From contig JBEKHC010000116.1 of assembly GCA_050012475.1 (NCBI GenBank), forward strand, positions 1-14,342: a DNA stretch of 14,342 bases. The letters run 5' to 3'. Both the position numbers and the translations under genes were made by a program. Source of the stretch: Candidatus Velthaea sp. (GTDB lineage Bacteria > Vulcanimicrobiota > Vulcanimicrobiia > Vulcanimicrobiales > Vulcanimicrobiaceae). The notes under the pieces were generated by a model, which saw only the letters and a list, made by a program, of their open reading frames with translations, searched no databases and was not told the origin of the DNA. Within the stretch, counting starts at the first letter, position 1, and every line of letters begins with the position of its first letter. Of this stretch, positions 321 to 14,342 are shown piece after piece.

Positions 321-1934
321 CTAGTGCGGAATGATCCACGGGACGAGAAACTGCTGCACGGCAACCGTGATGCTCAACCCCAGCGTGAGGATGATGCTGT
401 GCGGAAACGTCCGCGCGAACACGACGCCCTCCTGCCCTTTGAGATCGGTGACCGACACGCCGGTCGCAAGGTTTTGCGGCGAGATCATCTTGCTCATGAC
501 GCCCCCCGACGAATTCGTCGCCGCGAACAGCACCGGATCGAGATGGAGCTGGCCCGCGGCGATCACTTGCAAGTTTCCGAACAGTGCGTTCCCCGACGTG
601 TCGCTGCCCGAGAGAAACACGGCCAGCCAACCCAGAAACGGTGAGAGGACGACGAACAGCAGGCCCACCGACGCCACGCCCAACCCGAGCGTGTAGTTCA
701 ATCCCGAGTAGTTCATCAAATACGCCAACCCGATGATGAGCATGACGGTGAGAATCGGGATGCGGCTCTGCCGCCAAGTGACCCCGACGCAGCGCACGAT
801 CTCGCGGGCGGGCAGCCGCACGAGCGCCGCGGTTATGAGCGCGGCGACGAGGATCGCGGTGCCGGTCGCAAGCGGCTGGAAGTCCCAGACCGCGGCGTAC
901 GGCGCGCCCTTATAGAGCGTGATCGAAATTGCTTTGTTTAGGCCCGGCCAGGCGATTTTGAGGTCGCCGAGTGCGGCGATGTTGAGCGTCGTCCAGACGA
1001 TGACGGTGACGGTGACGACGATCCAGGGAAGCCAAGCGCCAAGCGCACGTTGCGCACCCGTCGCCGGCGCGTGCGTGCGCGGCATGTCGCGCACGGGCAC
1101 GGCGTAGGCCGGATCGGGTTGCGGCTTCCACCGCTGCAGGAACAGTAAGGTCGCGAGCAGCGAGCCCAGCGACGACAACACGTCGGTGAGCGCGTAACTG
1201 ATGAAGTTCGAGCAGATGAATTGAATGCCGCCGAACGCGCCGCCGGCGACGAGCAGCACCGGCCACAGCGCTCGAATCGAGCGCAGACCGCCGTACACGC
1301 CGATCACATAAAACGGCAGGAAGAACGCGAAGATCGGCAGCTGCCGGCCGACCATCGCGCCCAGCACCGTCGGCGAAAGATGGGTGACCGCGCCGAGCAC
1401 GGTGATCGGCACGCCCAGCGCGCCGAACGCGACCGGGGCGGTGTCGAAAATCAGCGTGAAGACCAGCGCGTCGAGCGCCGGGAACCCGACGGCGATGAGC
1501 ACCGAGCTCGTGATCGCGACCGGCGTCCCGAAGCCGGCGACGCCCTCGAGCAAAGCGCCGAAGCAGTAGCCCATCACGATGAGCACGATCCGCCGGTCAT
1601 TCGGCAAGTGGTCGAGTACCCACGCGTTGAGCGCCTTGAACCGACCCGACTTCACGGCGATGTTGTAGAGCAGCAGCGCGTTGACGACAATCCACATCAC
1701 CGGCCACACCGCGAATGTCGCGCCGTTGGCGACGGCCGCAACCGCAAGTCCGACCGGAAGCTTCCACCACGCGACCGCGATCAGCAACCCCACGAGCAAG
1801 CCCCCGAGCGAGGCCTGCCAGGCCGGACGGCGTACGATGCCGAGCAGCGCCAGCACCGTTAGGACCGGCAGCGTCGCAACGACGAACGAAGGGAGCAGGG
1901 CACCGCCGACCGGCGTGAGCAGTTGGGGAAACAT
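321..1934 (-). CDS. lctP: L-lactate permease (LctP/LldP family)
   Basis: 537 aa, polytopic membrane protein. Family motifs FGALLEGVAGFGTPVAI, TAPVAFGALGVPI, FLSGSDTSGNALFGNLQ and NSSGGVMSKMISPQ. RBS gagagga upstream of ATG. Confidence 0.95.
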   Translation of the reverse strand: MFPQLLTPVGGALLPSFVVATLPVLTVLALLGIVRRPAWQASLGGLLVGLLIAVAWWKLPVGLAVAAVANGATFAVWPVMWIVVNALLLYNIAVKSGRFKALNAWVLDHLPNDRRIVLIVMGYCFGALLEGVAGFGTPVAITSSVLIAVGFPALDALVFTLIFDTAPVAFGALGVPITVLGAVTHLSPTVLGAMVGRQLPIFAFFLPFYVIGVYGGLRSIRALWPVLLVAGGAFGGIQFICSNFISYALTDVLSSLGSLLATLLFLQRWKPQPDPAYAVPVRDMPRTHAPATGAQRALGAWLPWIVVTVTVIVWTTLNIAALGDLKIAWPGLNKAISITLYKGAPYAAVWDFQPLATGTAILVAALITAALVRLPAREIVRCVGVTWRQSRIPILTVMLIIGLAYLMNYSGLNYTLGLGVASVGLLFVVLSPFLGWLAVFLSGSDTSGNALFGNLQVIAAGQLHLDPVLFAATNSSGGVMSKMISPQNLATGVSVTDLKGQEGVVFARTFPHSIILTLGLSITVAVQQFLVPWIIPH

Positions 1935-2074
1935 CGTTCGTCCTCTCGCGGATTGCGGTGATTGCTGTTCCCCGGTAGCCTACCCGCTTTGAGGAGCAAG
2001 TTTGCGCAGCGCATGCTCGATTGGCGCATCAACCGCGAATAGCGCAGCGTGCCAAGCGTTCGAAGGAGGAGAGC

Positions 2075-2488
2075 ATGACGGAGGCCTATCTCGGGGGCTG
2101 GTCGATTGCGCGATCGATCGTCGACTTCGACCGGAACGACGCGATCGATTGCGCCGGCGAAGCGACACTACAGGCGCTCGATCGAAGCATCGTCTACGCC
2201 GAACGGGTGCGGTTCGAGCTGGCAAACAAACTCATCCACGCGACGCGGAGCTATCACTTTACGACGTCGGACGGCGCGATCGTCGCCACCTTCAGCGACG
2301 GCGCACCGTTCTTCACCCTGCGGCTCGATGCCGGCGGCATCGGACGCGCCTTCCACCAGTGCGGCGGCGACCGGTACGCGCTGACCCTCGAACTGCGCGA
2401 GCCGGACCGCTGGCAAACGTGCTGGGACGTGAGCGGGACGAAGCGGCTGCGCATCACGAGCGCGTACCGGCGGTCCCGCCAGTCGTAA
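2075..2488 (+). CDS. DUF6314-like hypothetical protein (137 aa)
   Basis: Strong RBS aaggagga at 2063-2070 before ATG 2075. The pattern LGGWSIARSI...YAE...ATRSY...FSDGAPFF...HQCGGDRY...WDVSG...ITSAYRR matches my recollection of DUF6314. Confidence 0.75.
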   Translation: MTEAYLGGWSIARSIVDFDRNDAIDCAGEATLQALDRSIVYAERVRFELANKLIHATRSYHFTTSDGAIVATFSDGAPFFTLRLDAGGIGRAFHQCGGDRYALTLELREPDRWQTCWDVSGTKRLRITSAYRRSRQS

Positions 2489-2591
2489 CGATTCATGAGA
2501 CTGGCATTTTGATTGGCGGTGCGCTAGATTTTGGGTGCGGCAATGAATCCGCGTCGATGGCGCGCGTCTGCCGATGAGGGAGAACAGCGAG

Positions 2592-3173
2592 ATGTTTGCG
2601 ATGAAAACCGCCCGGGTGAAGGCTCTCTGGATCGTTCTCGGCGCTGCTGTTTGGGCGCTGTCCGCAGCCCACCTGCCGGCGGCGAGCGCGTCCGGGTCGG
2701 TGCCGGTGGTGAAAAGCACCGCAACGCCGGCACCGTGCACGGGGAACTGTCATCACGTGCAGCCCGACGTCATCGCCATGACCAATCCGCTCGCCCCATG
2801 CCCGTCGGCGGCCCCGAACAAGGGGCGCCCGCCGCTTCGTCCCGGTGGACCGATATCGTCGATGAAACTCGTGCCGCCGCCGGCAACGCCGAAGTTCGTC
2901 AGCTACACGTTGGGCACAACGTGGCTCGTCTCGCAGGTCGTCGCGTATCCGCACGAGCTCGACATCCAGCTTTCGTCCAACGGTACGCACGAGACGATAC
3001 ACGTCCCGTTCTCGGTCGCGCCGGCAGCCGCTGCGTTGACTTTTCCGGCCAATGCCAAAGCGCAAAGTGTCATCGGCCACGGTGCGAACGCGCAGCTGCT
3101 TTGGCTGCGCGGAACGGAAGGGCATTTCGTCAACTACGCGGTCTCGGCGCCCCCGTTCATCACGGCACCGTAG
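2592..3173 (+). CDS. Secreted hypothetical protein
   Basis: Sec-type signal (MKTARVK + hydrophobic stretch + AASA), Pro-rich linker with a CxxxC and a beta-rich C-terminus. Start is uncertain (2574, 2592 or 2601); gggag lies 9 nt before 2592. Confidence 0.7.
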
Positions 3174-5890
3174 CCGCCTGCCATCTGCGCGGCGAGCTCC
3201 GTTCGCGAACGCACGTCGAGCTTGGAGAAGACCGCCGCAACGTGATGTTCGACCGTCCGATTGCTGAGCGTCAGGTGTTCGGCGATCGAGCGGTTCGATA
3301 GTCCCTGCGCGACGAGCGTTGCGACGGAGCGTTCCCGCGGGGTGAGCGTTTGCGATCCGCGTTCACTGCGCCGCGCTCCGCCGGCAGTCAGTCGCCGCGC
3401 GTCACGCAGCGCGCCCATTTCGCGGTAGCGCGCGATTGCGGAGGCCCGATCGCCGGATAATTCGTCCGCCAACGCCGCAAGGGGCAGAAAGCCGAATCGG
3501 GCGGCAAGTTCGTTTGCCTCGCCGAGTTCCCGGTCGCGCGCTTTGACGTCGCCCGCGTTCGCGGCCGCGATCGCGCGCACGAGCAGCGCGTGCACGCGCA
3601 TGACCGGATCGGCGGCATCGGCCGGACCGAACAGCGCGGCCGCCCGCTGCGCTTCGGCCGGACCGCCGAAACGCGCGAACTTCAACAGCGCCTCGTACAC
3701 GTACGTTGCGTTGCGCAGGCGCGGCAGCGTCGTGCGGATGAGCGCGACCGCGCCGGCGGCATCCGCCCGCGCAACGCGCAGTTCGGCGTGCGCTGCGGCA
3801 AGCGCTGCGGCATTCTGGTCCGATCCGGTCTGCAGAACCTGCGCGAGCACATCCGCGGCGGCCAGCCGCGCAAGCAGCGCGTCGTCTTCGACCGCCAGAG
3901 CGATCGGGATACCGATCGCCGCCGCATAAAATCGCACGAACGCGCCCGGCACATTGAGCGCGCAAGCGAAACGCAGCAACCGGTGGGCCCGCCGAGCGTC
4001 GCCGCGTAAAAACGCGACATCGGCGGCCGTGAGCCGGGCATACGCGGCGGCGTACGTCAGCGCGTGCCGGTCGGCGACCTCGATGGCATGGTCCAGACCG
4101 GCCTCCGCAAGCGGATAATTCGCTTGCTGGCGGGCAAAATCGGCGAGCAGCGTCCAGCAGTTGGCAACGATCGCCGGATCTCCGTGCGCTTCGGCCGTTT
4201 TGACTGCCTCGAGCGCGAAGGTCTGCGACCGTTCGACCTGACCCAGCAAATTCGCGATCGCTGCAGCCGCGACGTGGCGTCGCACCACATATGCCGGGTC
4301 GCGTTCACCCTCGAACGCATCGGCCAGCAGCAAGTGGGTTTGCGCTTCGTCGACCTCGTCGCGAAAGGCGTGAAACATCGCCAGCAACGCTTCCGCGGCG
4401 AAGCGTTCGGCATCGCCCGCTCCGCTCGACGCGATCGCGTCGCGGCAGTGACGCAGCGTGGCGTCGGCGTCGGCGAGCCGATGGGCCGCATTGGCGAGGC
4501 GTAAGGCAAGCCGGGCGATGCCGCTGCGGTTGCCGATGGTCCGATAATGCTCCGCCGCCTGGGTGAAATGAACGTACGCGTCGCGCGCGGCTCCGAGCAG
4601 GTCGTGCGCGTGGCCGAGCTTTTCGCCGACGCGCGCAATGCTTTGCGCGTCGAGCACGCCGCCGTGCAGCGCGCGGTCGAAATGATCGCGCGCCGTCCCG
4701 TAAGCGCCCGCGGCGGCAGCGAGATCGCCGGCTGCTTCGGCGTAGGCCGACGCGCGATCGGGACGCCCCGCCCCATCCCAGTGCCGAGCGAGAACGGCGG
4801 CAGCGGGCCGGACGGCCGCCGTTTCGAGCCGGGTCGCAATGCGTTCATGGAGATCGCGCCGCTCGGTGCTCGTGAGCCGATCGTAGAGCGCTTCGCGGAT
4901 GAGTTCGTGGCGAAAGCGCGGCGCTTCGGCGCCGCGCCGGCCGGTTTCGATCGTCAAGCCGAGCGCACGCGCCGTGCGAAACAACGTGACCTCTTCGCGG
5001 CGTGAAATCGGCGCGAGTGCGCGCAGCAGGTCGAGGTCGATCACCGATCCGAGCGCAGCCGCGATTTCGAGCACCTCGACCCCGCCGGGAGGCAGCGACG
5101 AGAGCCGGCTGGTCACGGATTGCTTGACGGTCACGGGCAGCAACGGCGCTGACGGATGATCGAGCGCGTCGAGCACGAGATCCGAAGCGAACAGCGGATT
5201 GCCTTCGCTTTTGCGCCAGATCTCATCGATCACCGCCTGCGGCAGCAAACGCCCCAGCGGCAGCGCGCGGAAGATCAATTCGCGCGTTTCGTCTTCCTCC
5301 AGCGGCCCGACCGCGATCTCATATGTCGAACGAAGGTTCGGTTTTTCGTCCGCGCGCGCGGCCAGCGCGAGCACGACGCGCGCGCCGCCGAGCGTTGCCG
5401 TGAGATACTCGACGACCTCGAGCGACTCGGGATCGATCCATTGGACGTCGTCGATGGTCAAGAGCACCGGCGCGTAGCTGGCGACGGATTCGAGGAACTC
5501 GCGAACGATGACAAACAGCCGCCGCTTGTGCGCAGGCGCGTCCTCGACATCGTCCGGCGCGGGGAACAGGCCGAGAAACTTCGCGAAGAGGGCGCGGTCC
5601 GCGCTCTCGCGCGGCTGCGCGCGCGGTTCGTTCTGCGCCAGGATGCGGCATGCTTCGGCGATCGGCCCGTAGGCCTCGCGGGTAAAGGCGTAGTTCGTCG
5701 CCTCGCCGATTTTGAAGCCGCGCGCGCGAGCGACGCTCGTCCACTCGCGAAGCAAGCGCGTTTTCCCGATGCCCGGTTCGCCGCACACCAGCGTCGTCGA
5801 TCCGTCGCGCCGGAGCGCATCGTCGAGCCGCGCATCGATGAACGCGAGCTGTTCGCCGCGTCCGATCATCCCGACCCGCTCTCGTGCCAT
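3134..5890 (-). CDS. Large ATP-binding LuxR-family (LAL/STAND) transcriptional regulator: AAA ATPase + TPR-like helices + C-terminal LuxR HTH
   Basis: IGRGEQL, Walker A GEPGIGKT, Walker [30 protein letters not shown] and C-terminal [43 protein letters not shown]. True start is probably 5929, 5890 or 5869 rather than 6118. Confidence 0.93.
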
Positions 5891-5965
5891 AGCGGCCAGG
5901 CTTCGACGCGCACGGCGATTTCCGCCCATCGGGCCCGTGTGCCCGCAGGGCGATCCGGTAGGCGG

Positions 5966-6010
5966 ATAGGTGAAACTACCGATGTTCGGCGCGTCACCCG
6001 CGGCTAGACT
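5966..6010 (+). promoter_or_regulatory. Candidate LuxR-type operator plus -10 element of the divergent promoter
   Basis: Imperfect 18-bp palindrome ataggtgaaactaccgat at 5966-5983, TAGACT at 6005-6010 and no good -35. Confidence 0.5.
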
Positions 6011-6095
6011 GATCCTCATATTCATCGACCGCGGCGCACGACACCCCAACGGCATTCGCCGTCGACGGCCACTCCTTAGAAAGAAGGGCGATATC

Positions 6096-6254
6096 ATGCA
6101 AGGCCTGGTCCTTTTCATCTCGCTCGCCGATGCTATCCGAGCCGGCTACCAGATCGTCGACCAAACGCCGGACGGCTACGTCGTCCGCACGAAAACGGCG
6201 GCGGGTTGGGCCATGGCGTTGATCCGCGACCCGCGCAACGCGGCTGCGCGTTGA
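6096..6254 (+). CDS. Small hypothetical protein (52 aa)
   Basis: [52 protein letters not shown]. Purine-rich RBS aagaaggg, protein-like composition, divergent from the LAL gene. Confidence 0.8.
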
Positions 6255-6796: not shown

Positions 6797-7207
6797 CTAT
6801 GGGTCGGGCTCGAATGAAACGGTGCTGATTTTTCCCTGCGGGTCGAAACCAAGTCTCATTCGTATGCTGCCGTTTTCGCAGCGCAGCGAATAGACATAGA
6901 TCGTGCTGCCGGACTCTTTGTATTTGAACAAGGAGTTGGCGGAATGCAGCGTGCCCAGCGGCTTCAAATGCGCGCTGATCGCGCCGACGACGTCGGCGCC
7001 CAGCTGTTCGTTGGCCCGCAGGGCATACAACGAACGATCGAGCGAACCGCGCTGCCAAGCGTCGAATTGGGCATCGACGCGGCGCGTGATCGCCGGATTT
7101 TCGGGCGCCTGCGCAGCGGACGCGGCGGAGCCGTTCGCCGCGTCCGACGCGTCGGCGAGCGGGCCGAGCACGGCGAGCACGGCAGATAAGGCGATGGTAG
7201 CGATCAT
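6797..7207 (-). CDS. Secreted hypothetical protein (136 aa)
   Basis: RBS ggagg. ATGA overlap with the upstream DCC1-like gene. Hydrophobic N-terminus and Ala/Ser linker, then a helical + beta domain ending LGFDPQGKISTVSF. Confidence 0.8.
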   Translation of the reverse strand: MIATIALSAVLAVLGPLADASDAANGSAASAAQAPENPAITRRVDAQFDAWQRGSLDRSLYALRANEQLGADVVGAISAHLKPLGTLHSANSLFKYKESGSTIYVYSLRCENGSIRMRLGFDPQGKISTVSFEPDP

Positions 7208-7632
7208 GAGCGTGAACCTCCGGAAGAATCAAGTGACGGGTGGCTGGCGAGAACGCACATCGACGCACCCAGCCACACCGAAAGGCGGCCGCGGTGGGCG
7301 GCGATCGCTCGGTAAACGAGCGCTTCGAGCGCGCAAACCAGGGGCAGAGACAAAACGGCGCCGGCACGAGCCGGCCAACCGCCCGCGCGTACCAACAGGA
7401 CGTTGAACGCGCGCGCGCCGACGTGAACGCGGCCGCCCTCGACGAGCACCATCGCGGCGGCGAAGGCGCGCCGGTCGATCCCCAGCCCGCGCACGATGCG
7501 GGCGAGCCCGGGGTCGCGGTCGATGCTTTGGTATCCCACGGACCGGACGCGCGCGGACCGCACCAGCCCGGAATGAGCGAATCGGGTGCACATGCCGCAA
7601 TCCGCGTCGAAAATCAGCACCGGACCCATCAT
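7204..7632 (-). CDS. DCC1-like thiol-disulfide oxidoreductase (DUF393)
   Basis: N-terminal VLIFDADCGMC (DxxCxxC), GRVHVGARAF and YRAIAAHRGRL. Coupled by ATGA overlaps at both ends. Confidence 0.9.
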   Translation of the reverse strand: MMGPVLIFDADCGMCTRFAHSGLVRSARVRSVGYQSIDRDPGLARIVRGLGIDRRAFAAAMVLVEGGRVHVGARAFNVLLVRAGGWPARAGAVLSLPLVCALEALVYRAIAAHRGRLSVWLGASMCVLASHPSLDSSGGSRS

Positions 7633-8663
7633 TCCATCCCGCGCGTCGGAAGCGTCGCAGTTACTGCGGCGGGACGCTCGACGAACGCACGCAGGAACTG
7701 CGCCGGCGCGACGCGTGCTGCGTACGTTCGCAGCGCCGACAGCGCGAGGCGGTAGTCGTCATCCGAAAACAGCATCGCTTCACACGCGATCATCACCAGC
7801 GAGAAGAGCGGCAGCGCCATCGTGTAAGCGATCCCGAGATGAAAGCCGATCGCGGCCAGCGCGACGACGTATTTCGCCGGACGCTGCCAGATGCAGAACG
7901 GGAACGCCGCTTGGAGAATCAGCGTGGCGTATGTCGCGGCGGCGACGAGGACGGCGCTTTGGTACACGTGGGCGCCCAGCGGCGTCAGGTTGAATTGATT
8001 CGAGCGTAAAATATAATACAGCGCCGTGCCGTCTTGCCACTTGTGCCCCGTAATCTTGTAGAAGCATGCCGCGGCGTACAGCAGACTCACTTGCCAGAGG
8101 ACCAACGCGACGCCGAAGTTGTGCAGCAAGGCGCGAGCGCGCCCGACGAAGCTATTCCTGCCATCCGTCGCCGTCGCGGGCGGCGCGAACCACTTACCGG
8201 CGACGAGATACGTGCTGCAATCGAGCGCCACCGCGTACATCAACAGGATCGTGGCGAGCGTCCAGCCGCTATCCGTAACGAAGCTGTCGCGCGCGATCAG
8301 GCACCAGGTGAAGATCGCGCAGGCAACGGTCGAGAACGGCACCCAGCGGCCGCAGGCGAATGCGACCGCCGAGAGCAGCCCGAGCCAAAAAATCAGCTCG
8401 AAACCGGCCGCCGAGGCCGATTGAAGATAGAGGTTGGGCCCGTGTTTTTCGACGAGTTCGCCAGCATATGACAGCGGGACGACGCCGTCGGGGCCCCACA
8501 GAAAACGCCGCCAGCCAAGATTTTCCAGGTAGAAGAGCACGATTGCGGTGCCCAAGAGCGCGCGCAACACGCTGCTGCCGATGCGCCGCTGGGGCGTCGT
8601 CAGCACCTCGAGCACGCGGTCCGCGAACGCCGCGATCCGTGCGGATCCCGCTGCCGCGCTCAT
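7629..8663 (-). CDS. HTTM-domain membrane protein (SdpB-like, vitamin-K-dependent carboxylase homology group)
   Basis: LRALLG, LWGPDG, QVSLLYAAACFYKITGHKWQDGTALYYIL and FHLGIAYTMALPLFSLVM. Multiple TM helices. Follows an SdpA/DUF5819-like gene. Confidence 0.88.
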   Translation of the reverse strand: MSAAAGSARIAAFADRVLEVLTTPQRRIGSSVLRALLGTAIVLFYLENLGWRRFLWGPDGVVPLSYAGELVEKHGPNLYLQSASAAGFELIFWLGLLSAVAFACGRWVPFSTVACAIFTWCLIARDSFVTDSGWTLATILLMYAVALDCSTYLVAGKWFAPPATATDGRNSFVGRARALLHNFGVALVLWQVSLLYAAACFYKITGHKWQDGTALYYILRSNQFNLTPLGAHVYQSAVLVAAATYATLILQAAFPFCIWQRPAKYVVALAAIGFHLGIAYTMALPLFSLVMIACEAMLFSDDDYRLALSALRTYAARVAPAQFLRAFVERPAAVTATLPTRGME

Positions 8664-9319
8664 GACGCCGCCTCGGCGGCAGCCGCGCCGGTAACCGGCA
8701 GCCAGGGGAACAGCAGCGTGTCGTTGTGCTTTCTGGAATCGTCGGCAGCGAACCGCTGGGTGAAGCGCGGGAACACGTGCTCCACGATCGCGATCTGCAC
8801 GCTGCGCGGATGCGTCGCGCCGCCGGCGCCGAGAAACAGCGCGAGCCGGACGAGACCTTCGAGGATCATCGGACGCGTGCGCGGATCGGTGAAGGCCTGC
8901 ACTTGCTGCGGTTTGAACTTGCCTTTGCCCAGCGCGCTGTCGTCGAGCGCGGAGACGGTGAGGTTCATCGCCAGCACCTTGAGCGTCATGTAGCGGGAAA
9001 ACGGATGCGCGCGCAACTCATCGAGCAGCGGGTCGGTGAGATTGACCCAGGCGGTGGGCTCGCCGCGTTCGGTCCGCGTCCGCGCCAGGATCACGATATC
9101 GCTCTCGATGGGCGTCGGCGCGAACATGTTCCAGTATTGTTCGAAGTACGGGTGCATGTAGCCGAGCACGGCCGGACGCAGTGCTTCGCCGAGCGGATTG
9201 ACAGGCAGCGCGAAGAGCGTCTCCGCGCTCGCGTGAACGACAAGGACGACGGCGAACGTAACGCTCAAGGCCCAGAGCGCGATCCGTTCGCGAGACGAGG
9301 CAAAGCCTCTGCTGTGCAT
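8660..9319 (-). CDS. SdpA-like / DUF5819 family protein (219 aa)
   Basis: RBS gaggaa before ATG 9319. N-terminal TM helix, then H...LFALPVNP...YMHPYFEQYWNMFAPTP. ATGA overlap with the HTTM gene. Confidence 0.82.
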   Translation of the reverse strand: MHSRGFASSRERIALWALSVTFAVVLVVHASAETLFALPVNPLGEALRPAVLGYMHPYFEQYWNMFAPTPIESDIVILARTRTERGEPTAWVNLTDPLLDELRAHPFSRYMTLKVLAMNLTVSALDDSALGKGKFKPQQVQAFTDPRTRPMILEGLVRLALFLGAGGATHPRSVQIAIVEHVFPRFTQRFAADDSRKHNDTLLFPWLPVTGAAAAEAAS

Positions 9320-9359
9320 GCGGTGTTCCTCTCGGTAGGCGAATGCGGACGAAGCATGT

Positions 9360-9390
9360 ACGCAGGGCGCGCCCCGAGCGCGCCCCACGT
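9360..9390 (-). other. 13-bp RNA hairpin directly 3' of the peptide gene (stability or attenuation element)
   Basis: Minus strand acgtggggcgcgc-tcggg-gcgcgccctgcgt gives 11 Watson-Crick + 2 G.U pairs. The full pairing works only on the minus (sense) strand. No U-tract. Confidence 0.65.
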
Positions 9391-9399
9391 CGTCGGGAT

Positions 9400-9651
9400 T
9401 TAGCTGTCGAGGAGTTTCGCCGCTTCGCTTGCGCTCGTGGAGAGAATCCCGCTCGAGGCTACTTTGTCGCTCACGACAAAGGTGAGCGGCGAGACGATTC
9501 GGACGTGCCAATCCGGGCGAGCCACGCTCGAGAAGGCAACGGCTGCGGTGTTCGTGTTTACCACGTGAGGAGGTTGCGCCAACGCCGAACCAACGGCGAG
9601 GGCGGCGATCGGCAAAACTGCCGCGACGGTGACCAGTGCTTTGTGCTTCAT
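9400..9651 (-). CDS. Small secreted peptide, putative SdpC-like/RiPP precursor (83 aa)
   Basis: RBS ggag before ATG 9651. Signal peptide MKHKALVTVAAVLPIAALAVGSALA. Mature part is Ser/Thr/Val/Ala-rich with one Trp and no Cys. Immediately upstream of sdpAB-like genes. Confidence 0.75.
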   Translation of the reverse strand: MKHKALVTVAAVLPIAALAVGSALAQPPHVVNTNTAAVAFSSVARPDWHVRIVSPLTFVVSDKVASSGILSTSASEAAKLLDS

Positions 9652-9833: not shown

Positions 9834-11009
9834 TCACTCGCGCAAGCGGCGCCGGCTGCGCAGACGCCATGCGAGCACGAGGGCGCCGGCAACCACCCCG
9901 CCTGCCGCAAACATCGGCAGATCGTGGGCAACGGCCGCCGGCGGAAGTGCGGCCATCAGGTGCGGCAGCTGTTGGAACACGCTGCGCGCCAATCGCACGC
10001 TGAACCACGTCCAGCTCGCGAGCGCGATGAAACTGTAGACGGTCAGTACCGCGACGGTAAACGGCGGCAACGGCGGTGCCGGCACATGCCCGCACCGGGC
10101 GAAGCGGGACGCCAACCGCCGAAACGTGCGCTCAACGTGCGCGTGCAAGCCGCTGACGCCCAAAACATCGGAGACGATCCAGTATCCGTCGAAGCGAAAG
10201 AGCGGATTGAGGTCCAGCAGCGCGGCAGCGATAATGAACGTAATCGCGCAGTGGAGCGCGGCGGCGTGGGTCTGGACATAGATCGCGGCGTAACACGCGC
10301 CGCAGATGCTCTGAACGTACAAGCCTCCGCAGTCGACGGCGATCCGCCGGCGACGGTCGAGCCGCCAAATGCGCGTCACGTCGCTGTAGAAGACGGGAAA
10401 CACGAGGTACAGTGCGAGCCCAATCGAGCCCGGCCGCACAGCGAAGCGTTTGCAGGCACCGGCGTGCCCGAACTCGTGCGCCAAGCACGAAACGACGAAC
10501 AGCGCGTAACCGGCCGGCACATCGTACCGGCCAAGGCGCCGCGGCGCGACGTGTTGCGTATCGATCCAGTACGCGCCGGCGGCGGCGGCGACGAGCGCGA
10601 TGAGCACCGGCACCGCAACGGGTCCGAACAGCGCCGCGAAAGGCGTCGCGATCCGCCCAGCGAGTTTCGCCGGAAACAGCGTTCGGCGCAGCAGGAAGCC
10701 GTGCTTGCGCGCTCGCGTGCGTTGCTGCTCTTCCGCTCTGTCAATGCCCGCGACGACGCGATCGTAGACCCGGCCGACATCAGTGGCGTTGAGTTGCCGT
10801 TCGTTGTCGCTGCACCGGATCGCTATTTCCTCAAAGCTCGCGCCGTTCCACGCGTCCGCGACGACCCGGTATGCCAGTTCGGACAAGCGCACTTGTACGC
10901 CCGAATCGCAGTCCAGCACGTAGCTGACACGCACGTCGCTACCGTCGAGCACGTGCAACGTCCCGCGCGCGATGCGCGCCGACGCGGGCGGCGATTCGAA
11001 CGTCGTCAC
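9834..11009 (-). CDS. M50-family (YydH-like) membrane zinc metallopeptidase with probable N-terminal PqqD/RRE-like domain
   Basis: HEFGH at 10464-10478, IGLALYLVFPVFYSDVT, VDCGGLY and DLNPLFRFDGYW. The first ~95 aa read as three strands then three helices. GTGA overlap with the upstream gene. Confidence 0.9.
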   Translation of the reverse strand: MTTFESPPASARIARGTLHVLDGSDVRVSYVLDCDSGVQVRLSELAYRVVADAWNGASFEEIAIRCSDNERQLNATDVGRVYDRVVAGIDRAEEQQRTRARKHGFLLRRTLFPAKLAGRIATPFAALFGPVAVPVLIALVAAAAGAYWIDTQHVAPRRLGRYDVPAGYALFVVSCLAHEFGHAGACKRFAVRPGSIGLALYLVFPVFYSDVTRIWRLDRRRRIAVDCGGLYVQSICGACYAAIYVQTHAAALHCAITFIIAAALLDLNPLFRFDGYWIVSDVLGVSGLHAHVERTFRRLASRFARCGHVPAPPLPPFTVAVLTVYSFIALASWTWFSVRLARSVFQQLPHLMAALPPAAVAHDLPMFAAGGVVAGALVLAWRLRSRRRLRE

Positions 11010-11977
11010 ACCGCGACGTCGCCGCGCCGCGGTCCGCGGCGATTCCGGCGCACGATCGCGCTCAAGTCGCGCTGCAATGCGTCAATCACGCGATCCGACT
11101 CTTCGAGCAGCGCGTGCCACGGCAATGGCCGAGCGCGATCGGCTGCGTCGAACGCGAGCGCGAGATTTGCGCGCGCCAGTCCGAGGAACTCGTCGGCATG
11201 GCCGCCATAATAGAGTTCGCGCGCCAGCGCGGCAAGATCGGAAATCGGCTCGGGCGTATCCGGCAAGCCGAGCACCGTGGCGAGTCGAGCGGTTACCAGC
11301 GTTGGGCGATGGGCTTGGAGATCGGCTTTCCAATCCTGGAGATCGTCTAAAATCTGGTGCGCGAGATTGTATTTCTCGAGCGAGAGCAGCAGCGCATCGG
11401 TACGCGAAGCATCGCTGCCGAGCAGGTTGAGCCCCACGATCGCCACGCGCGAAACGCAGCTCTTGGCTGATGCTATCGCGATGCATTCGGCCGTCGTCGC
11501 ATCCGCGAGCCGCCGGCGCCGCGTCGAATAGCTCGCCTCCTTGATCACGCCGCCCAGATACTCGGCAAGCGCGGCTTGAAGCGTCTCCCAGAAGACGCTG
11601 TCGGGCGCGAACGTCCGCCCCAGTTCACGCTGCAATTCGCACTGCGCGCCTTGCCAGCAGAGCAGAAACGACGTTCGTTGCTCGCGCTCGAGTTCTTCAT
11701 CGAAGAGCGCGTCGGCAATCACGATCGTGCCGGCGAGCAGTTCACAACCGGCCAGGAACCGTGCCAGAAGCTCCTGGTCGATATCGCCGAACGCGTCAGC
11801 GAAAAGTAACGGGAAGATCGCGATCGCAGAATCCGGCAGCAAGCCGGAAAAATCAACCTTGCGCGGCCAGCGCCGCTGCATCGCCGCGACGTCGCCGGCC
11901 AGCCGGGCCAACGTCGCGTCCCGATCGGCGGTCGAGAATTTGCGGAAGGTACGCTTGAGTTCAAGGAGGTTGGCCAT
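11006..11977 (-). CDS. Class I isoprenoid-synthase-fold protein (polyprenyl synthetase-like; putative ComQ-like peptide prenyltransferase), 323 aa
   Basis: RBS gagga before ATG 11977. Degenerate first Asp motif IADALFDEE, then AKS, then second motif HQILDDLQDWKADL at about 11330-11356. All-helical character. Confidence 0.8.
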   Translation of the reverse strand: MANLLELKRTFRKFSTADRDATLARLAGDVAAMQRRWPRKVDFSGLLPDSAIAIFPLLFADAFGDIDQELLARFLAGCELLAGTIVIADALFDEELEREQRTSFLLCWQGAQCELQRELGRTFAPDSVFWETLQAALAEYLGGVIKEASYSTRRRRLADATTAECIAIASAKSCVSRVAIVGLNLLGSDASRTDALLLSLEKYNLAHQILDDLQDWKADLQAHRPTLVTARLATVLGLPDTPEPISDLAALARELYYGGHADEFLGLARANLALAFDAADRARPLPWHALLEESDRVIDALQRDLSAIVRRNRRGPRRGDVAV

Positions 11978-12457
11978 GGCTGTCCTCAGTCGAGAGCCGT
12001 CACGGCGTCCTGGGCAATGGACATGACGGTGTTCTCCAAATCGCGATTCGCGGGACACGCAGGCGGAGAGCGCAGGAAGCGCTCATCGCCCGTCGTGATG
12101 TCAGCGACGTGTGGTTATTCGTAGGGCGAGTATCGCACGATCGGGCTGCGGCTTGTTCGCCGCGCCCGTAGTCATCTTAAGGCGCCGCTCGAGTTCGTTC
12201 GTCTCTCAACTGTCATCTCGCTTGTCTTTTCGTCCAGCTCTTCGTCGTTCTTCAGTCACGAAGCTACGGCTTCGCTCCCTCATCACTCCTCGATCTGAAC
12301 GAAAATCCTTCGCGATCTTATGCCACGAACTTCTGAGTCGGGACACTGAGTAAACCTCGGTTCATCGTGATCTCTCGTCAAGCGTAGCCCGAGCGATTCC
12401 GGCGCGCAATCTTTCATTTGTGCTACGAGGAGTCGCAATCGCCGGCGGCCGGGCACG

Positions 12458-13000
12458 TCACGCTCGGATCTGCGTCGAACCAGCTTCGCCTCCGACGATG
12501 ACGCCGCCACTGCGCTGCACGATGAACGCCGTGTACGAGACGCGCATAAGCGACGTGGATGTGCCAAAGACGGCCAGCGACAGTTGGAGAACCCCGGACC
12601 CCGCAGCGGCCGAGTACGACACCGCAGCGGCATCGACAGCGAAGCCGAGCGGCGGAATGAAGACCAAACCGCCGCCCGCCGACGTGCCGGCGATCGGCTG
12701 GACGACGACTAGCTCGACGTCGGGGCCCACCGAGCTGCCCGCGGGCGTCAGCGAATATGGCGTCCAAAACGAAGCCGGAGCCGCCGAGGCGATACCGCTG
12801 ACGAACTCGCCGGCCGTGCACGGGCCGCCGACCGGAAACGACAGCGTGTCGCGCGTCCAATCGTGCGCGTGGGTACCGACGAACGCAAACACCGCGACGC
12901 CGGTCTCGACCGTGACGGTAAGCGCTCCGAGGACGGGTAAGCTCGGCGCGCCGCCGGGAAATTCGATCTGCTGCGACTCTTTGGAGGTCAGGGTGATCAC
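12458..13000 (-). CDS. Hypothetical beta-rich protein (180 aa)
   Basis: Strong RBS gaaaggaa. GTG start overlaps the stop of the cyclase-like gene (GTGA). Rich in Gly/Ala/Val/Ser/Thr. No family recognised. Confidence 0.78.
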   Translation of the reverse strand: MITLTSKESQQIEFPGGAPSLPVLGALTVTVETGVAVFAFVGTHAHDWTRDTLSFPVGGPCTAGEFVSGIASAAPASFWTPYSLTPAGSSVGPDVELVVVQPIAGTSAGGGLVFIPPLGFAVDAAAVSYSAAAGSGVLQLSLAVFGTSTSLMRVSYTAFIVQRSGGVIVGGEAGSTQIRA

Positions 13001-14037
13001 GTGATCGTTTCCTTTCGGTTCGGGCTATGCGCTCCATTGGGTACGTCGTCCGACGATGAACGCTCCCGCATCATCAGGCTCAGCGCGCGCGCGACGGTGG
13101 CCGTCGTAAACAGAAAATAGTCGTCGTCGTGGAGCGGCCCACCCGCTTCGCCCGGCAATTCCCACGGGCGTTCGACATCATCGTACGTCACGCGCAGCAT
13201 GGGCTTGGCGGCCCACCAGCCCTCTGCCGATTGCGTTTCGAGCAGCGCTGCGGCAACGTCGAACACGAACGCCGCAGTCGGGCCGGAACCGAAGCGAGCG
13301 ACGATCTCGAGGGCCAGCGCGCGATCGAACGGATCGCGATCGACTGCCGCGGCAAGGATCGCAAGGGCCGGAGGTATTGCCGGGCGCCCCGCCGCCTCCA
13401 ACGCGGCCAAGTTGTGGAGGGTCGCATAGAGGGGCGTGCGATACCAGTAGGAATTCCACAGCCCGTCGTCCCTGCGCTGGGAGGCGATGAACGCGAGCGC
13501 TTTCTCGCGCGTTGCCGACGGCGCCGCCAGCGCGCGCACGACGAGCGGTGTGACGTCTGGATGACTGCGCGTCCACGCGGACGCAGCGACGGTGTCGGAC
13601 GCGCCGGTGTTGTACGTCGCGAACCCGCCGTCGGAACGCGCAAACGTCTGGAGGATACGGTCGGTCTCGCTTCCCGGAGCGCTTCCCATCGACGTAAGGA
13701 AGAGCGCGGCCCAACTCGTCGAGTCGCTGTCGGAGGGGACCCGCGTATTGTAGCCCCAGCTGCCGTCGGCGCGGCGCGAGGCCTTCAGGAATTGGGCGGC
13801 CCGCTCGAGTGCGCCGCGCAGATAGTGCCGTTCGGGCGCACGCACGATCGGTTCCGTCTCGAACAAACACCAACCGATGTAAGCGGTCGTCCACGTGTCG
13901 GAACGTCCCACGGCGAGATTGAAATCGGGCCAGGCGCCGTTGGGCGCCTGCATCTCGACGATGTAGCGGCTGGCCCGATCGATCGCGCTGCCCAAATCGG
14001 GCAGCAGTGCGCGCCCATCGTGCTGTCGGGCGCGCAC
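12997..14037 (-). CDS. Prenyltransferase/squalene-oxidase-repeat protein; single-domain class II terpene cyclase-like
   Basis: QW-type repeats QAPNGAW, RRADGSWGY, RSDGGFATY, QRRDDGLWNSYW and QSAEGWW. DSDST at 13717-13731 occupies the DxDD position. 346 aa fits one alpha6/alpha6 barrel. Confidence 0.85.
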   Translation of the reverse strand: MRARQHDGRALLPDLGSAIDRASRYIVEMQAPNGAWPDFNLAVGRSDTWTTAYIGWCLFETEPIVRAPERHYLRGALERAAQFLKASRRADGSWGYNTRVPSDSDSTSWAALFLTSMGSAPGSETDRILQTFARSDGGFATYNTGASDTVAASAWTRSHPDVTPLVVRALAAPSATREKALAFIASQRRDDGLWNSYWYRTPLYATLHNLAALEAAGRPAIPPALAILAAAVDRDPFDRALALEIVARFGSGPTAAFVFDVAAALLETQSAEGWWAAKPMLRVTYDDVERPWELPGEAGGPLHDDDYFLFTTATVARALSLMMRERSSSDDVPNGAHSPNRKETIT

Positions 14038-14038
14038 G

Positions 14039-14342
14039 TCAGCGGCACTCCAGCGCAGGCGACGCCGGCGCCGCAGCCGGGGCAGCGCCCTTCACGTGCG
14101 CTCCGTACGCCTCCGCGACCTTCGTTCGGAAGCGTTTGCCGAACGCATCGCAATAGTTTGCGTGCATCGTCGTGCCGTTGGCGGCCTCGGCCAGCACCGC
14201 GCAGCCGCCGCCGCAATACAACGCGAAGCGGCAGCGCCGGCAGGTCGGATTCGAGACGACGGTACGTTGGCGCCAGTTTTGCTCGCGCTCGGCAACGAAC
14301 TGCAGACTGCCGGATGGATCGATCCAACCGATCCGGATGTTC
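14039..14342 (-). CDS. C-terminal part of a radical SAM/SPASM-domain protein (5' end outside window)
   Basis: Frame is open to the window edge: NIRIGWIDPSGSLQFVAEREQNWRQRTVVSNPTCRRCRFALYCGGGCAVLAEAANGTTMHANYC. This is Cx2Cx5Cx3C plus a distal Cys, the SPASM AuxII pattern. Stop is 1 nt before the next start. Confidence 0.88.
   Translation of the reverse strand, partial: NIRIGWIDPSGSLQFVAEREQNWRQRTVVSNPTCRRCRFALYCGGGCAVLAEAANGTTMHANYCDAFGKRFRTKVAEAYGAHVKGAAPAAAPASPALECR

Follow-up and report, generated by a model that had tools for sequence, protein, structure and literature searches.

ChrPC is reportedly a fused prenyltransferase-terpene cyclase that serves as a RiPP maturase, described by Hubrich et al. 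in Chem in 2024. According to the available parts of a review, the trans-IDS-like transferases include ComQ and PalQ as well as the ChrPC P domain, and all characterized ones target tryptophan (PMC13290415). In the same excerpts, the P domain is described as prenylating an internal Trp with C10-C20 chains and the C domain as cyclizing the chain; the first report of peptides with cyclized terpenes dates from 2024, and two of their maturases are characterized (PMC13290415). ComQ-type enzymes combine a DDxxD first motif with an NDxxx pseudo-second motif, and in StheQ Mg is held by D85/D89, the outer aspartates of the first motif, together with K174 and Q212, as stated in the accessible portion of a preprint (bioRxiv 10.64898/2026.08.29.745113). 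Excerpts of further papers give D89/D93 as the first motif of PalQ (PMC10853753), place Mg of Ord1, which has free indole as acceptor, on the Asp residues that open and close the first motif (PMC12510300), and describe the cyclase MstE as using a DxD motif on a prenylated hydroxybenzoate (PMC12414744).

We analyzed a stretch of 14,342 nucleotides (the window) and the contig C74 adjoining it. The features relevant to a comparison with these systems lie in the window unless C74 is named:

9834..11009, minus strand: P0002, an M50-type intramembrane metalloprotease of 391 aa recognized by its zinc motifs, a putative leader peptidase
11006..11977, minus strand: P0001, a putative peptide prenyltransferase of 323 aa with a trans-IDS fold, assigned by fold and motif comparison
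about 11996-12197, minus strand: relic of a precursor 3' region and the start of a radical SAM gene, recognized by similarity to C74
12214..12350, no strand assigned: dispersed genome repeat, about 135-160 bases long, in the intergenic gap; 12 other contigs hold copies of it
12458..13000, minus strand: gene of a 180-aa all-beta protein, its start overlapping the cyclase stop
12997..14037, minus strand: P0003, a class II terpene cyclase of monodomain type with 346 aa, MstE-like, with DxD at D103/D105 (PF13243 over cut-off)
14039..14342, minus strand: the SPASM-bearing C-terminus of a radical SAM maturase (TIGR04085 SPASM over cut-off)
C74 end, about 25175-26457, plus strand: N-terminal ~430 residues of the radical SAM maturase (PF04055 over cut-off)
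C74:24906-25043 (= L005:12907-13044), upstream of the radical SAM gene: 45-aa precursor gene

An earlier, sequence-only reading had proposed that P0001 is a peptide prenyltransferase, arguing from a degenerate first Asp-rich motif that lacks the Arg-Arg loop, an intact second motif and a transferase stop that overlaps the start of the M50 gene. All three features are real. The first motif reads DALFD (DxxxD) and no Arg-Arg loop follows it, the second, DDLQD, is intact (DDxxDWxxD), and the two genes overlap on the minus strand (11006..11977 and 9834..11009). The residues noted in P0001 are D89/D93, K172, Q208 and D211/D212/D215/W216/D219. As an argument for function, however, the motifs are no proof alone, since Q208 and DDxxD are common to canonical synthases too and hence do not diagnose a Trp acceptor. 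Structure and profile comparison both placed P0001 in the isoprenoid-synthase fold. The Foldseek check that had been suggested thus upheld the fold, but its best matches, like those of VIA-align, were ordinary chain-elongating synthases, and the best sequence-profile matches were polyprenyl synthases. Ord1 ranked 18th in Foldseek and was not among the 50 VIA-align matches listed; it was weakly matched by the P0001 family profile (PDB 9V4G, E 0.001), and none of the 33 PDB sequences matched by this profile is a chain named ChrPC. No Pfam family matched P0001 at E<=0.1 and PF00348 gave no match; three canonical PF00348 genes lie elsewhere in the genome, and P0001 is not one of those three matches. 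Within the P0001 family, a DDxxD first motif was present in 15 of 145 rows and any RR in 9 of 145.

The cyclase provides the closest link to a described system. P0003 consists of a single beta domain, and its nearest PDB chains were 8pak (E 4.9e-22), 8paj and MstE 6sbb (E 4.9e-15). Its D103/D105 align to the DxD of MstE; of the 85 rows of the cyclase alignment, 76 keep D103 and 73 keep D105. A homologue search with P0001 against 1.84 billion representatives yielded 365 sequences at E<=0.001, of which the best 150 were examined; 84 of these were at least 500 aa long and 66 were shorter. P0003 matched 57 of the 84 long relatives at E<=0.001 vs none of the 66 shorter ones, and PF13243 was found in all eight long homologues checked. 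P0020 is such a fusion, one chain with the cyclase before the transferase, in the same order as in the window; P0003 is 35% identical to its N-terminal half over 344 aa. The two genes are adjacent in loci L007 and L008, and in the window they are separate, 1 kb apart, with another gene between them. Because the two are fused in 57 of the best 150 of 365 homologues, the class II cyclase at 14037-12997 is, on this sequence evidence, the predicted partner of P0001. This partnership makes ChrPC the closest precedent rather than ComQ, which the sequence-only reading had named and whose motif pattern is the opposite one.

The last 22 bases of the window match the end of contig C74, and this 22-mer occurs twice in the genome. 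Across the overlap the radical SAM frame is open for 584 codons, and all four related radical SAM proteins compared run colinearly from one contig to the other, residues up to 409-443 aligning to C74 and the remainder to the window's contig, C116. The best NCBIfam families of the radical SAM protein were PapB, CefB and geopeptide, all far below curated cut-offs. The precursor gene belongs to the same operon as P0001, four genes upstream of it. It encodes an acidic leader that runs to ELEQRL, followed by a core with C36, W42, H43, W44 and the terminal K45; the core has two Trp, one Cys and no Tyr. In a leader-profile search of 127,210 six-frame genome segments the precursor was the sole strong match (E 1e-9), and it matched no NCBIfam family. 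A candidate peptide substrate with Trp in its core is present, on the adjoining contig that lay outside the view of the sequence-only reading.

In P0002, the HExxH and NPxxxxDG zinc ligands were invariant in seven of seven rows. The PF02163 match was weak and below cut-off, and the best NCBIfam matches were RiPP intramembrane metalloproteases (YydH/LiaK and daptide), far below curated cut-offs. Comparison of the first 90 residues with a PqqD cluster gave a TM of 0.61, with feature scores under 0.9 and no PF05402 match; this N-terminal domain is probably PqqD/RRE-like. Given the zinc motifs, the RiPP metalloprotease matches and the PqqD likeness, P0002 likely removes the leader.

As far as ChrPC can be judged from the review's description, the locus shares with it a trans-IDS-like transferase, a class II cyclase and a precursor with an internal Trp. 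ChrPC carries the P and C domains in one chain, whereas the window has two genes with the cyclase first; it also has an MstE/8pak-like DxD cyclase, a SPASM radical SAM protein, an M50 protease with a putative RRE and a short acidic ELExRL leader, which set it apart from that description. Like the pairs ComQ/ComX, StheQ/StheX and PalQ/PalX in the excerpts cited above, the locus would use an isoprenoid-synthase fold to alkylate a near-terminal Trp in a neighbouring peptide, and the StheQ arrangement, with Mg at both outer aspartates of the first motif plus Lys and Gln, has equivalents in P0001. In contrast, ComQ and StheQ are described with DDxxD and then NDxxx, and P0001 has DxxxD and then an intact DDxxDWxxD. 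PalQ is said in its excerpt to need a terminal Trp and to have an NHLP leader, whereas the window precursor ends in Lys. Judged by motifs and substrate, P0001 is thus not a member of the ComQ or PalQ groups. A cyclase, a radical SAM protein and an M50 protease, all present in the window operon, are not mentioned in the available text on ComQ, StheQ and PalQ. Ord1 shares with P0001 the fold and a Gln three residues before the second motif, but is described with a full first and a broken second motif, the reverse of the degenerate first and intact second motif of P0001. P0003 resembles MstE (PDB 6SBB) and 8PAK/8PAJ as a beta-domain-only DxD cyclase of about 350 aa; its presumed substrate is a prenylated peptide instead of the prenylated hydroxybenzoate reported for MstE. 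The cluster is likely a split-gene, radical-SAM-containing variant of the peptide-terpene kind reported in 2024.

We consider it very probable, from sequence comparison, that P0001 is a peptide prenyltransferase. With somewhat less assurance, although still as the probable course, we propose a whole pathway in which P0001 prenylates a Trp of the precursor, the cyclase folds the chain and the M50 protease removes the leader. The sequence-only reading had already paired a peptide prenyltransferase with an M50 leader protease; this is still the best reading, and a Trp precursor exists for it, but the cyclase partner had been missed. In the proposed mechanism, the allylic diphosphate and Mg would be held by D89/D93 with K172 and Q208, as by their equivalents in StheQ and Ord1, and given the missing Arg-Arg loop, IPP would not be the acceptor. 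P0001 would instead alkylate the indole of W42 or W44. The donor would be C15 or C20, made by the genome's three ordinary polyprenyl synthases; the small T84, five residues before D89, presumably favours a long chain by chain-length rules and is taken here to favour a long-chain donor. The DxD of the cyclase would protonate the terminal alkene and close rings in the peptide-borne terpene, and the radical SAM protein would add a cross-link, for which a thioether formed from C36 is the likeliest candidate. Leader-guided cross-linking and Trp prenylation would come before cyclization, and cyclization before leader cleavage. The N-terminal domain of the M50 protease would bind the leader, and a cut at the membrane would release a lipophilic antimicrobial or signal peptide.

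Related loci were drawn from metagenomes and from genomes of the same family. A P0001-type enzyme was found in 10 of 348 genomes of this family and in none of three other genomes of the genus. Duplicates, loci of the genome itself and any match weaker than E 1e-30 were removed, which left 24 loci; 17 of them carry a cyclase, 8 an M50 homologue and 6 a related radical SAM gene. The leader pattern was written after the precursors had been seen and the loci are kin, so that the following co-occurrence counts are descriptive and not a statistical test: a precursor with the same leader was present in 10 of 24 loci (8 by the fixed pattern, 2 more by profile), and the 12 loci with at least 2 kb upstream and at least 1 kb downstream contain a cyclase in 11 cases, a precursor in 9, a radical SAM gene in 5 and an M50 gene in 4 (absent in 8). 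As background, the pattern matched three times in the 5.36 Mb genome, one match being the true precursor. A CxxD/N motif, scored by eye, occurs in the core in six of six other loci with a related radical SAM gene and in none of four without one; the core of the window precursor lacks it.

Several loci differ in architecture. In L054 (1834-2211) and L055 (5125-5547), precursors of 126-141 aa lie directly upstream of a fused transferase-cyclase and have a long N-terminal extension, signal- or Tat-like by eye, before the leader motif. Transferase domains are fused to a GldB-like domain at L013:996-3974 and L017:9824-11347; in the L013 fusion PF25594 was over cut-off, and the identical gene in L016 gave a weak NCBIfam match. 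L017 additionally encodes a B12-dependent radical SAM protein and an ABC exporter. Distant fused transferase-cyclases were seen at L001:7519-9468, L014, L015 and L019, one of them on a record titled Patescibacteria; a pattern search found no ELExRL precursor at L014, L015 and L019.

Counting the window, 11 loci bear a precursor, and each of them has a core that contains Trp or Tyr. Trp cores occur in seven (the window, L004, L009, L010, L017, L054 and L055) and cores with Tyr but without Trp in four (L056, L058, L064 and L065). With four Trp-free cores, the family is not restricted to Trp. In a tree of 42 rows (L067 omitted as too short), those enzymes of the four Tyr loci that bear the motifs group in a single clade (100/100) in which DDxxD is restored, and the window enzyme falls outside it. 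Three of the four also hold a transferase paralogue without catalytic motifs. The Tyr precursors come in up to five tandem copies (L056:15650-18122, L058:5051-11017, L064:9598-13986, L065:9856-14250), and a glycosyltransferase is additionally encoded in the gene region of L064 and L065. It is possible, although we put it forward tentatively, that these loci represent an ELExRL-leader RiPP family in which the acceptor has switched between Trp (window) and Tyr (a sister clade, with the motif-less paralogue in three loci), and whose products would carry both a polycyclic terpene and a cross-link set by the radical SAM protein. The Trp-free cores also bear on whether the same pathway in the window might use another acceptor, such as Cys36, His43, Asp34 or a residue that the radical SAM protein generates. 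In both core types there recurs an Asp with beta-branched residues after it, and the second motif of P0001 differs from those of ComQ, StheQ and Ord1. Such an acceptor is nevertheless unlikely: the Trp-free cores all have Tyr and belong to enzymes of the separate DDxxD clade, the window core offers two Trp and no Tyr, and the L004 core has no Asp. In the available text of the review, moreover, the characterized trans-IDS-like peptide transferases all target Trp (PMC13290415).

The cluster might instead make a free terpenoid or meroterpenoid, either from a small aromatic compound that is prenylated and then cyclized as by MstE, or through a class II/class I diterpene pair, with the peptide genes as mere neighbours. 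MstE, which cyclizes a prenylated hydroxybenzoate, is among the closest solved cyclases, and Ord1 prenylates free indole with the same fold as P0001. D211/D215/D219 have the i, i+4, i+8 spacing found in the metal motif of class I cyclases, which would suit the diterpene version; against it, the structure matches of P0001 were prenyltransferases and not class I cyclases. Three of the 12 well-flanked loci lack a precursor, but these are distant, and the two that are in the tree (L015 and L018) fall in one long-branch clade. Precursors with the same leader otherwise adjoin the enzyme despite differing tailoring genes, and L054 and L055 pair a precursor with a fused enzyme where no radical SAM or M50 gene was found beside them. 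We therefore regard a free product as improbable, and retain peptide prenylation as the preferred reading.

A third possibility is partial decay of the cluster, or use of only a part of it, with prenylation but no cyclization or with a precursor that no longer fits its radical SAM protein. The relic, the dispersed repeat and an unrelated 180-aa gene split the cyclase from the transferase, which are adjacent in L007 and L008. The relic is 76.8% identical to C74 over 125 bases (E 4e-23), with a further 81% over 27 bases in the leader; it keeps a leader remnant without the Trp core, its radical SAM frame ends after 12 codons, and it was the second-best leader-profile match in the genome (E 3.9). 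It sits beside the dispersed repeat (copies counted by blastn at E<=1e-5), at which contig depth was raised and loose ends were seen in four of four runs. The position of relic and repeat between cyclase and transferase shows that rearrangement has taken place. The 180-aa protein is conserved, with an invariant DWTRD and weak likeness to lectin-type and tail-fibre domains; it has no known family and no clear fold, its gene is in none of the 24 related loci, and it is probably an accessory or inserted gene. The core without CxxD/N and the lack of the enzyme in all three same-genus genomes would also suit decay. However, all five enzyme frames are open with intact catalytic motifs, and the listed pieces from four runs contain no frame-breaking change in the cluster genes, so that decay has only a small chance of being correct. 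At least half of the words of the stretch recur in each of seven DNA runs, which come from soil and peat metagenomes.

The rest of the window supplies one more candidate substrate, a secreted peptide resembling SdpC and encoded at 9651-9397. It lies downstream of the M50 gene on the same strand, 180 bases past it, and has one Trp. This substrate is very unlikely, as the peptide heads an SdpA/SdpB/DCC1 cassette of which a paralogue on contig C2 has no transferase, SdpA and SdpB are in none of the 24 related loci, and its N-terminus is signal-like by eye, with no ELExRL leader. The cassette, of sporulation-delaying-protein type (window 7204-9651, minus strand), encodes the SdpC-like peptide, SdpA (DUF5819), SdpB (HTTM) and a DCC1-like oxidoreductase; it occurs twice in the genome (paralogue at G000:C2 about 39200-45000, L006:9239-14965) and is separate from the prenyl cluster. 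Further along lie a 994-aa AAA-ATPase/LuxR regulator of MalT type (3134-6118, minus strand), a convergent gene for a 199-aa protein with a signal-like N-terminus and no family (2574-3173, plus strand), a DUF6314 protein (2021-2488, plus strand), an L-lactate permease (321-1934, minus strand) and, at 1-290, short REP-like repeated units, each ~32 bases long, of which many contigs hold related copies. That P0001 is an ordinary chain-elongating prenyl diphosphate synthase supplying the donor is barely credible, for although polyprenyl synthases are its best profile and structure matches, it has neither a DDxxD first motif nor a PF00348 match, the Arg-Arg loop is absent across its family, three canonical synthases are encoded elsewhere in the genome, and the operon holds no other candidate transferase.

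The principle of a prenylated and cyclized peptide is not new. The literature consulted gave no account of an ELExRL-leader family or of enzymes with this fold that prenylate Tyr, although Hubrich 2024 and the 2026 review may cover them, and it is in the Tyr branch that new chemistry could lie. If the proposal is true, that branch would provide the first peptide transferase of trans-IDS-like type to act on a residue other than Trp and would place merosterol-like rings on peptide Tyr, and the product of the window would be a terpene-capped, cross-linked Trp-His-Trp peptide. A stand-alone transferase and cyclase with a 45-residue substrate would lend themselves to assay and recombination more readily than fused enzymes do, and may serve as tools for peptide lipidation. 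Peptide maturases can hide among orphans missed by Pfam and among fusions annotated as squalene-hopene cyclases, and this family would offer a natural Trp-versus-Tyr pair for locating acceptor choice in the fold.
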